Assembly (NCBI GenBank): GCA_902623535.1
Contig: CACNUA010000005.1
Coordinates: 109 to 64,108 of the forward strand
DNA from: an uncultured SAR86 cluster bacterium
Lineage (GTDB): Bacteria > Pseudomonadota > Gammaproteobacteria > Magnimaribacterales > D2472
DNA length: 64,000 nucleotides
Reading direction: 5' to 3'
Below, piece after piece: positions 21,330-22,997 of the stretch; the first letter of the stretch is position 1; the number at the start of each line of letters is the position of its first letter. Both the position numbers and the translations under genes were made by a program. The notes under the pieces were generated by a model, which did not search any database, had not been told where the DNA came from, and saw only the letters and a program-made list of their open reading frames with translations.

Positions 21330-22997
21330 ATGGATAAGAAGCACAAGCAATATAAGATCGAGAAAGGGTTAATGCTTTTCACACAGCCAAAGTCACCCTA
21401 TTACTATGGAAAAATAAGACTAAACAGAAAATACTTTACTAAATCATTTGCTCCAATTACTACTATTGAAGAAGCAAAAATAAGGTTATATGAATGGAAA
21501 GAAGAACTAACCTCAAAACAAGCAGAAGCAATTCCTGCAATGGCTTTAGGCCAAAGCTTGCGTGATACATTCGCGACTAAGGACCATGTCACTTTGGAAA
21601 ATGATTTTCAGTTTTTAGATGTAAATAGATTTGATCCAAAAAAGAAAACAATAGAAGAAAGGCGCATTAACTTTATTGAAATTTATGATAACTATAATCC
21701 AGCAGAGGCAGCAGGTCAGGCTCATCGGTGTTTAGATTGTGGGAATCCTTATTGTGAGTGGAAGTGTCCTGTGCATAATTACATTCCTAATTGGCTAAAA
21801 CTGGTTAATGAAGGCAATATTCTAGAGGCTGTAGAATTATGTCATCAAACAAACAGTCTTCCTGAAGTTTGTGGTCGAGTATGTCCACAAGACAGGTTAT
21901 GTGAAGGCGCATGCACCCTAAATGATGGATATGGAGCTGTTAGCATTGGAAATATTGAAAAATACATAACTGATAAAGCATTTGAATTAGGCTGGAAACC
22001 TAATTTAGAAAACAGAAGATGGACTAAAAACAAAGTCGCTATTGTTGGCTCAGGTCCTGCAGGCCTAGCTTGCGCTGATATCTTAATAAGAGGTGGAGTT
22101 AGATGCGATGTTTTTGAAAAACAATCCGAAATCGGAGGCTTATTAACCTTTGGGATCCCTGAGTTTAAACTGGAAAAAAAGATCGTTAAGAAAAGAAGAA
22201 AGATGTTTGAAGAAATGGGTGTTACATTTAAGTTAAACTGTGAGATTGGTAAAGATATAGCTTTTAAAGAAATTGAATCTAAATATGATGCTGTTTTCTT
22301 GGGTACTGGAACTTATACATCATTAAAAGGGGGTTTTGAGGGTGAAGGCCTTCCAGGGGTTTTTAAAGCAATAGACTACCTCATTGGAAATACAAATCAC
22401 TTACTCAAACTCCCACAAAAAAAAGAAGATTACATTAATTTGAGAGGGAAGAATGTTGTTGTTCTTGGTGGTGGTGATACTGCAATGGATTGCAATAGAA
22501 CCGCAATCAGGCAATCTGCCAAGTCTGTTTCGTGTCTGTATAGGCGAGATGAAAAAAATATGCCAGGGTCTAGGAAAGAAGTTAAAAATGCAAAGGAGGA
22601 AGGGGTTAACTTCGAGTTTAATGTCCAGCCAATTGAAATTATTGGTAACGGAAAAGTTGAGGGAGTTAAAACCATTAATACTCAGCTTGGGGAGCCTGAT
22701 ATCAATGGCAGAAGAATGCCAATTCCAATTAAAGGAAGTGAAAAAATTTACCCTGCAGATGCAGTTATTGTGGCTTTTGGATTTAGAGCTAGTCCTTATG
22801 ATTGGTTTGCAGAACATGACATAGATACTGATAAAAATGGCTTAGTGATTGCTGAAGAGCAACAAAAATTTAAATTCCAAACTTCCAATCCTAATATCTT
22901 TGCAGGCGGTGACATGGTAAGAGGTTCAGACCTAGTGGTTACCGCAATTTGGGAAGGTAGAGAGGCTGCAAAAAGTATTATTCAGTATGTCAGTTAG
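21330..22997 (+). CDS. gltD: Glutamate synthase small subunit with ~88-aa N-terminal extension
   Basis: [44 protein letters not shown]; the canonical start region (LENDFQF) begins only at about residue 89. Confidence 0.95.

Follow-up and report, generated by a model that had tools for sequence, protein, structure and literature searches.

The gltD Locus

Why does the GltD subunit of glutamate synthase in a SAR86 cluster bacterium begin with 88 residues that do not belong to the enzyme, and why does the gene for its partner subunit, gltB, run in the opposite direction? The window, meaning the whole stretch of 64,000 nucleotides that was analysed, comes from a genome of 1.2 Mb with low G+C. Its genes are ordered aroK-aroB (plus strand), gltB (minus strand), a gap of 47 bp, an open reading frame of 555 aa on the plus strand at 21330-22997, and hemE (Table 1). 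The preliminary description of this DNA had reported 88 in-frame residues upstream of the ordinary GltD start, and both this observation and its coordinates were confirmed; residue 89 is the TTG at 21594, where the sequence LENDFQF begins.

The remainder of the chain is an ordinary GltD. The curated model TIGR01318 spans residues 93-554 with 741.8 bits (cut-off 482.95), the Fe-S cysteines and the nucleotide-binding motifs are present, gltB is adjacent, and hemE follows and is probably co-transcribed with gltD. The protein departs from other members of TIGR01318 in its N-terminal arm and in the divergent gltB. Among 28 loci of other genomes of the class, gltB lies upstream on the same strand in 22, is absent from the 1.5-kb flank in 6 and is divergent in none, and hemE is found downstream of gltD in 25. 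In the family of the window, gltB is divergent from gltD in all 54 loci examined (54 of 121 carriers of the extension). Since both features are absent from the other class members examined and gltB is divergent throughout the family loci, the fusion and the inversion are both derived and coincide. No tRNA and no integrase body remain at the gltB/gltD locus. Contigs crossing the junction between extension and GltD were found in four metatranscriptome assemblies, one with 0 differences over 21471-21645 and one across 21284-22786 at about 91% identity. Such contigs give no strand, start or level and could derive from DNA, and they were not counted as evidence of expression. Farther upstream, a penicillin-binding-protein-like gene (12783-15197) sits between a TetR-like gene and aroK and is absent from genome G007 of the same genus (locus L037), the gene names being given by eye.

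Table 1. Features of the gltB/gltD region, in window coordinates, and of the IOR fusions, in coordinates of their own loci.
Feature	Position	Strand	Remark
aroB	15773..16846	+	Convergent with the gltB 3' end; other side of the inversion
gltB, large subunit	16843..21282	-	Divergent from gltD; inverted relative to gltB>gltD>hemE elsewhere in the class
Predicted extended -10 of gltB, TG-n-TAGTAT	21293..21301	-	Consensus match only; 7 bp from the repeat
Direct repeat ATGTCATAC x2, 10-bp period; candidate operator	21307..21325	+	Single copy in the genome
Candidate -10 of gltD, TACTAT, inside the repeat	21313..21318	+	Weak; TAnnnT kept in 43/52 loci
Integrase arm-type domain (GltD residues 1-62)	21330..21515	+	Modelled with four strands and one helix
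Variable linker, about 20-27 aa	21516..21593	+	Mean pairwise identity 0.25, dN/dS 0.24
Canonical GltD core: Fe-S, FAD and NADPH domains	21594..22997	+	TIGR01318 above cut-off
hemE	22987..24033	+	Overlaps the gltD stop
IOR fusions	L073:5054-8776, L074:4033-7767, L075:5095-8823		In an acyl-CoA/aromatic degradation cluster

Conservation of the Extension

The order to which the window belongs comprises four families and 22 genera, and the same numbers are given for SAR86 in PMC11582366. The family of the window (f1) is represented by 139 genomes, its own included. A profile of the extension domain (A1) was used across the genomes of the family and the order, and it matched 120 of the 138 other family genomes, 19 of 30 in the sister family f4, 1 of 50 in f3 and 0 of 47 in f2. 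The alignment starts at residues 1-3 in 34 of 37 family genomes (own included), and the other three have no gltD match. Of the 18 family genomes without the domain, 17 have no gltD orthologue in the assembly and one has a gltD cut at a contig end, and no intact unfused gltD was found among the 139 genomes. In 57 other genomes of the class with a GltD match at E<=1e-100 (the unpublished G379 left out), no alignment reached residues before 73. All 121 carriers are taken as descendants of one event and not as independent cases. Five carriers have short frames, which are G145 (frame breaks), G197 (ends after 397 aa), G112, G143 and G190.

Over 29 sequences, residues 4-62 have a mean identity of 0.69 and the core one of 0.79, and dN/dS, estimated from five disjoint unsaturated pairs, is 0.034 for the arm domain and 0.037 for the core (linker values in Table 1). 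The arm domain is conserved well beyond chance and is under purifying selection as strong as that on the enzyme core. The same set of sequences argues against an early proposal, in which TAAGGA at 21578 and TTG at 21594 form an internal start that yields long and short isoforms. Both words are present in the window, but TTG stands at residue 89 in 3 of the 29 sequences, ATG or GTG never does, and residues 63-92 contain no ATG, GTG or TTG in 17 of the 29. A conserved short isoform is unsupported, the start codon not being kept.

Relation of the Extension to Integrase Arms

The preliminary description had suggested an origin from the arm-binding domain of an integrase, and the comparisons made here agree with this origin. 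Residues 4-68 share 35% identity over 65 aa with the N-terminus of the integrase at L131 (pairwise E 8e-14), and an HMM built solely from integrases matches the N-terminus of the window protein with E 8e-12, over the first ~67 positions only. The hhalign probability is 99.2 for the arm domain against the integrase N-terminus, with the profile A1 that includes 4 PetA rows. Judged from these alignments, the domain and the N-terminal arm of a family of tRNA-targeting tyrosine integrases are homologous. The assignment rests on this homology to the putative donor family; the structural comparisons agree with it weakly.

In the AlphaFold model (pLDDT 91.3), the domain forms an antiparallel beta-sheet of four strands on a C-terminal helix. 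The sheet-plus-helix fold predicted earlier is thus recovered, with four strands and not three. The first three ranks in Foldseek are arm-type binding domains (3jtz, 3rmp and 3ju0; probability 0.98, 0.98 and 0.89), with TM values of 0.56-0.62 and weak E-values of 0.08-0.22. In a wide structural search, 3jtz came third among unrelated folds (Z 5.4, rmsd 2.3, 57 aligned residues), and no Z exceeded 6.2. The ESM Atlas features lie at 0.94-0.95 to the arm-family clusters of PF02920 (Tn916) and PF09003 (lambda). Residues 1-88 of the window GltD have no Pfam match, and searches of Pfam, PHROGs and PDB sequences with the domain gave nothing significant, PF13356, PF09003, PF02920 and PF20172 included; across 33 members, the Pfam arm models gave PF13356 at E 0.085 in one and PF20172 at E 0.006 in four. 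AP2/ERF domains are kin to integrase arms, and an AP2-like domain had been named as the other candidate. The resemblance in fold holds (2gcc, 7wq5 and 7et4; Z 4.1-4.5), but there is no sequence match and the integrase family is far closer.

The domain resembles the arms of the P4-like HPI and HAI7 integrases (3jtz, 3rmp and 3ju0), of lambda and of Tn916 in being an N-terminal sheet-plus-helix unit of ~60 aa, and short direct repeats adjoin both the integrase genes and gltD. Unlike those arms, it sits on a core metabolic enzyme, is fixed in a whole host family and is reached by no significant Pfam arm model. The fusion protein is not a whole tyrosine integrase, as it has no core-binding or catalytic domain and the remainder of the chain is GltD.

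A search of 1.84 billion representatives with A1 returned 52 matches, which were mostly GltD and PetA fragments together with three proteins of 392 aa. These three and a 382-aa protein in genome G047 form one tyrosine-integrase family, as indicated by matches to SAM-like domains, precomputed PF00589 matches on some relatives and conserved R, LRH and Y motifs, which we take to have the roles of the tyrosine-integrase motifs. Marine metagenomes and a single genome of the order contain members of this family, which sit at tRNA genes: <=260 bp upstream there is a tRNA, whole or fragmentary, in 36 of 38 loci, and whole tRNAs are present in 20 of 40. A direct repeat with a 10-bp period occurs <=75 bp from the ATG in 39 of 39 integrase genes (0.27 in shuffles), and an 11-bp period in 0 of 39. 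At least 26 of these genes also have an inverted copy close to the start. Several minor features of these loci (L119-L159 and L076) may be recorded. The family targets tRNA-Ile/Phe/Met and is missed by NCBIfam; the layout is fixed as tRNA, 10-bp direct pair, -10, inverted copy and ATG; and at least 10 different 9-bp sites track the arm sequence. More distant integrases of 408-439 aa with related N-terminal domains occur in families f2 and f3 (L368-L370).

A Direct Repeat between gltB and gltD

The preliminary description had proposed the adjacent divergent promoter as a target of the arm domain and had missed a direct repeat that lies there, with the core GTCATAC-N3-GTCATAC at 21309-21325. Coordinates were compared for all 121 carriers, and the repeat adjoins the arm domain in every one of them, exact in 118 and with a single mismatch in 3, which makes this promoter a plausible target. 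All exact matches in the 139 family genomes lie at gltD and none elsewhere, and the repeat is found in 0 of 30 genomes of the sister family f4. A wider regulon was considered and rejected, as exact matches occur at gltD only and one-mismatch matches elsewhere are about as frequent as those of reversed-pattern controls. In 54 loci that were compared, 14 positions of the repeat are invariant but for one change and the flanks are variable; the 10-bp period is kept in all 54 and is the period of the donor integrase repeats. The inverted copy that is typical of the integrase promoters is present at 0 of the 54 gltD loci.

The distance from the predicted extended -10 of gltB to the repeat is 7 bp in 33 of the 54 loci and 27-29 bp in 19, the element being elsewhere or absent in 2 (0.4 expected). 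The classes differ by two helical turns, and this points to a bound protein that has to face RNA polymerase. On the other side, 3-35 bp separate the end of the repeat from the first in-frame start of gltD, so that the repeat overlaps the gltD promoter or leader. A conserved plus-strand -10 of gltD could not be fixed across 52 loci.

Related Fusions in PetA and IOR

The same kind of arm domain was found on two further enzymes. In f4, it precedes the Tat motif of the Rieske protein PetA, in the gene order rpsI-petABC-sspA (L090-L118). Among 28 petA loci read (29 fetched, 1 truncated), 18 have the arm and, each, two TTGAACAC..TGTTCAAA inverted repeats, which flank a promoter-like TATAAT. The other 10 have neither arm nor repeats, and petA starts within about 20 bp of rpsI. 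The PetA arm has a dN/dS of 0.041 (16 sequences, 6 pairs) and is out of frame in one of the 18, G256 (L103). His-rich linkers are seen in some PetA fusions (L105-L107, L112). The second enzyme is an IOR-type 2-oxoacid:ferredoxin oxidoreductase of ~1240 aa, which carries the arm in three genomes of the window's family, each of them with the GltD fusion as well. An inverted TATACACAG-like repeat lies at the start of these IOR genes.

In a tree of 40 arms (13 of 29 GltD, 4 PetA, 2 IOR and 21 integrases) computed from only 59 columns, the GltD, PetA and IOR fusions form three separate groups. The PetA arms are sister to integrases that are preceded by TTGAACAG, with the same TTGAACA site (100/96), and the IOR arms are nested among integrases preceded by TATACACAG (97/88). 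Since both group with integrases of matching sites, site and domain have travelled together twice. The GltD arm stands on a long branch without a matched donor. The GTCATAC site precedes 0 of 39 donor integrases and 0 of 74 among the integrase loci listed (38 + 36), and 120 viral loci with the GTCATAC pattern (of about 230 estimated) gave no integrase or arm match in a search run with a positive control. Because no integrase with this site was found, the link between domain and site in GltD is drawn by analogy from PetA, IOR and the integrases themselves. The metagenome scan for donor relatives covered the best 80 of 516, and a donor with the GTCATAC site may be unsampled.

Proposed Mechanism and Alternatives

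Probably, gltD has captured a cassette of operator and arm, in which the GltD arm would bind the repeat and regulate the gltB and gltD promoters, separated from each other by the inversion. In origin, gltD would have acquired the 5' end of an integrated element, made up of the arm sites and the first ~60 integrase codons, during or close to the rearrangement that reversed gltB and divided the gltBD operon into two transcription units. GltD that is not bound up in glutamate synthase would then bind the repeat. Given the short distance of 3-35 bp between the repeat and the gltD start, the bound protein would damp gltD. It would also act on RNA polymerase at gltB, in favour of that gene, since the distance to the gltB extended -10 is 7 bp in one class of loci and 27-29 bp in the other, a difference of two helical turns. 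We favour a feedback that balances the subunits, since the inversion removed their co-transcription. Control by the flavin, Fe-S or NADPH state is possible, if speculative. NtrC is present in five of five genomes, so that the fusion does not replace an absent nitrogen regulator. DNA binding by an isolated arm domain may be weak.

All three fusion partners, GltD, PetA and IOR, are iron-sulfur proteins, which hints at a sensing of assembly or cofactor loading, three cases being few. A broader version can be offered tentatively, in which streamlined marine bacteria have repeatedly grafted the self-repression cassette of integrases (arm sites and arm) onto the iron-sulfur enzymes GltD, PetA and IOR. 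An unassembled or cofactor-free subunit might in this way report the assembly of its own complex at its own promoter, and GltD might repress gltD and activate gltB from one site.

An alternative that we consider unlikely takes the repeat as promoter sequence of overlapping divergent promoters, the arm having lost specific DNA binding and being kept for contact with protein, RNA or non-specific DNA. ATGACA could serve as a -35-like word for gltB and TACTAT as the -10 of gltD, and 32 of the 33 loci with the 7-bp distance have TAnnnT within the repeat. Small beta-sheet-plus-helix folds are also common, and other folds score alike. However, in 19 of the 54 loci the repeat is two turns farther away and cannot be a -35, yet both of its halves are still invariant; promoter words would be expected to vary more than these 14 near-invariant positions, and domain and matching repeats travel together in the two other captures.

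Slightly less probable is the alternative that the repeat is the site of a host PhoB-like response regulator, which would place nitrogen assimilation under phosphate control, with the arm kept for another reason. Winged-helix activators suit positions about 22 bp apart relative to a -10, as are the two positions seen here relative to that of gltB. Each of five genomes has one OmpR-family regulator beside a sensor-like gene, and its best match is TIGR02154 (PhoB), under the cut-off. The half-site TGTCAT matches the core CTGTCAT of the Escherichia coli pho box, but pho boxes are built of 11-nt units (PMC4415409), and the repeat, with its 10-bp period in 54 of 54 loci, is not a pho box in this sense and has the period of the donor integrase repeats instead. 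The repeat is moreover single-copy in each genome, without a regulon. In the sister family f4, 4 of 5 genomes encode an OmpR-family regulator and 0 of 30 have the repeat, and TGTCAT reads towards gltD, in some loci only 3-4 bp before the start codon. Pho-like boxes of 11 bp gave 7 matches in five genomes and 6 in controls. As a separate observation, three GTCAC-like words with an 11-bp period were seen in the genome of the window at G000:C4:2863-2890, upstream of a 1030-aa gene (TonB-dependent receptor-like by eye), and these could be a true pho box.

It is very improbable that the fused arm serves recombination or defence by competing with, or assisting, the integrases of incoming elements at arm sites. 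The donor family does occur at tRNA genes in marine metagenomes and in a genome of the order, but the GTCATAC site is found before 0 of 39 integrases, 0 of 120 viral pattern loci hold an integrase or arm, neither a tRNA nor an integrase body is left at the locus, and an invariant site at the gltBD promoters would be unexplained. The notion that the extension is a neutral scar of the gltB inversion, or is untranslated with a start at 21594, can be dismissed despite the poorly conserved linker and the TAAGGA and TTG of the window genome, given the dN/dS of the domain and the rarity of start codons described above.

Comparison with Known Systems

Apart from PutA, BirA and NadR are other enzyme-repressors. 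PutA is an enzyme with an added ribbon-helix-helix DNA-binding domain and represses its own regulon (PMC5293562). The likeness to PutA that had been drawn for the GltD fusion stands in function, as in each case a DNA-binding domain (putative in GltD) has been added to the N-terminus of a redox or metabolic enzyme, next to a divergent promoter. It does not extend to the DNA-binding fold. PutA has the ribbon-helix-helix and a demonstrated proline-dependent switch (PMC5293562), whereas the domain of GltD is integrase-derived and its binding and switching putative. The fusion therefore agrees with enzyme-repressors of the PutA kind in architecture only (an enzyme, an added putative DNA-binding domain and a candidate operator at its own locus) and lies outside the trifunctional PutA family, from which both fold and enzyme differ.

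The capture proposed for gltD also has a counterpart in the integrase IntS of prophage KplE1, which represses its own promoter, overlapped by its arm sites (PMC2951348). Single mutations of these sites did not derepress, and the site overlapping the -10 was not separately testable (PMC2951348). In both systems, the promoter of the arm-encoding gene is overlapped by arm sites, candidate ones in gltD, and the IntS layout of tRNA followed by integrase is that of the donor family. In IntS, however, a whole integrase and a directionality factor regulate a prophage gene (PMC2951348), whereas in GltD an arm and one pair of repeats would act at the divergent promoter of two housekeeping genes. No description of a GltD-arm fusion was found in the open-access literature, and the available part of PMC11582366 has no mention of integrase or Rieske. 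Both enzyme-regulators and integrases that repress themselves are known; what is new is the combination of the two through a probable capture of cassettes, which happened three times and, in GltD, spread to a whole family.

If the capture reading is right, an operator and a DNA-binding domain taken together from a mobile element offer a one-step route to gene-specific regulation, and one order of abundant marine bacteria has taken this route three times or more. Ammonium assimilation would also have an extra regulator that annotation misses, because the only names given to the fusion protein are glutamate synthase and oxidoreductase. Nature also provides a set of arm domains that differ in their 9-bp sites, on which a recognition code can be tested directly.

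Two further observations concern glutamate synthase in the other families. The glutamine riboswitch RF01739, of which none was found in the f1 locus L037, occurs in f4 between gltB and a divergent ammonium-transporter-like cluster (L035:11982-12032 and L036:1854-1904). In four genomes of f2 and f3 (G058, G044, G040 and G053), the GltD-like matches lie in open frames of about 2000 aa, which are possibly single-chain glutamate synthases.
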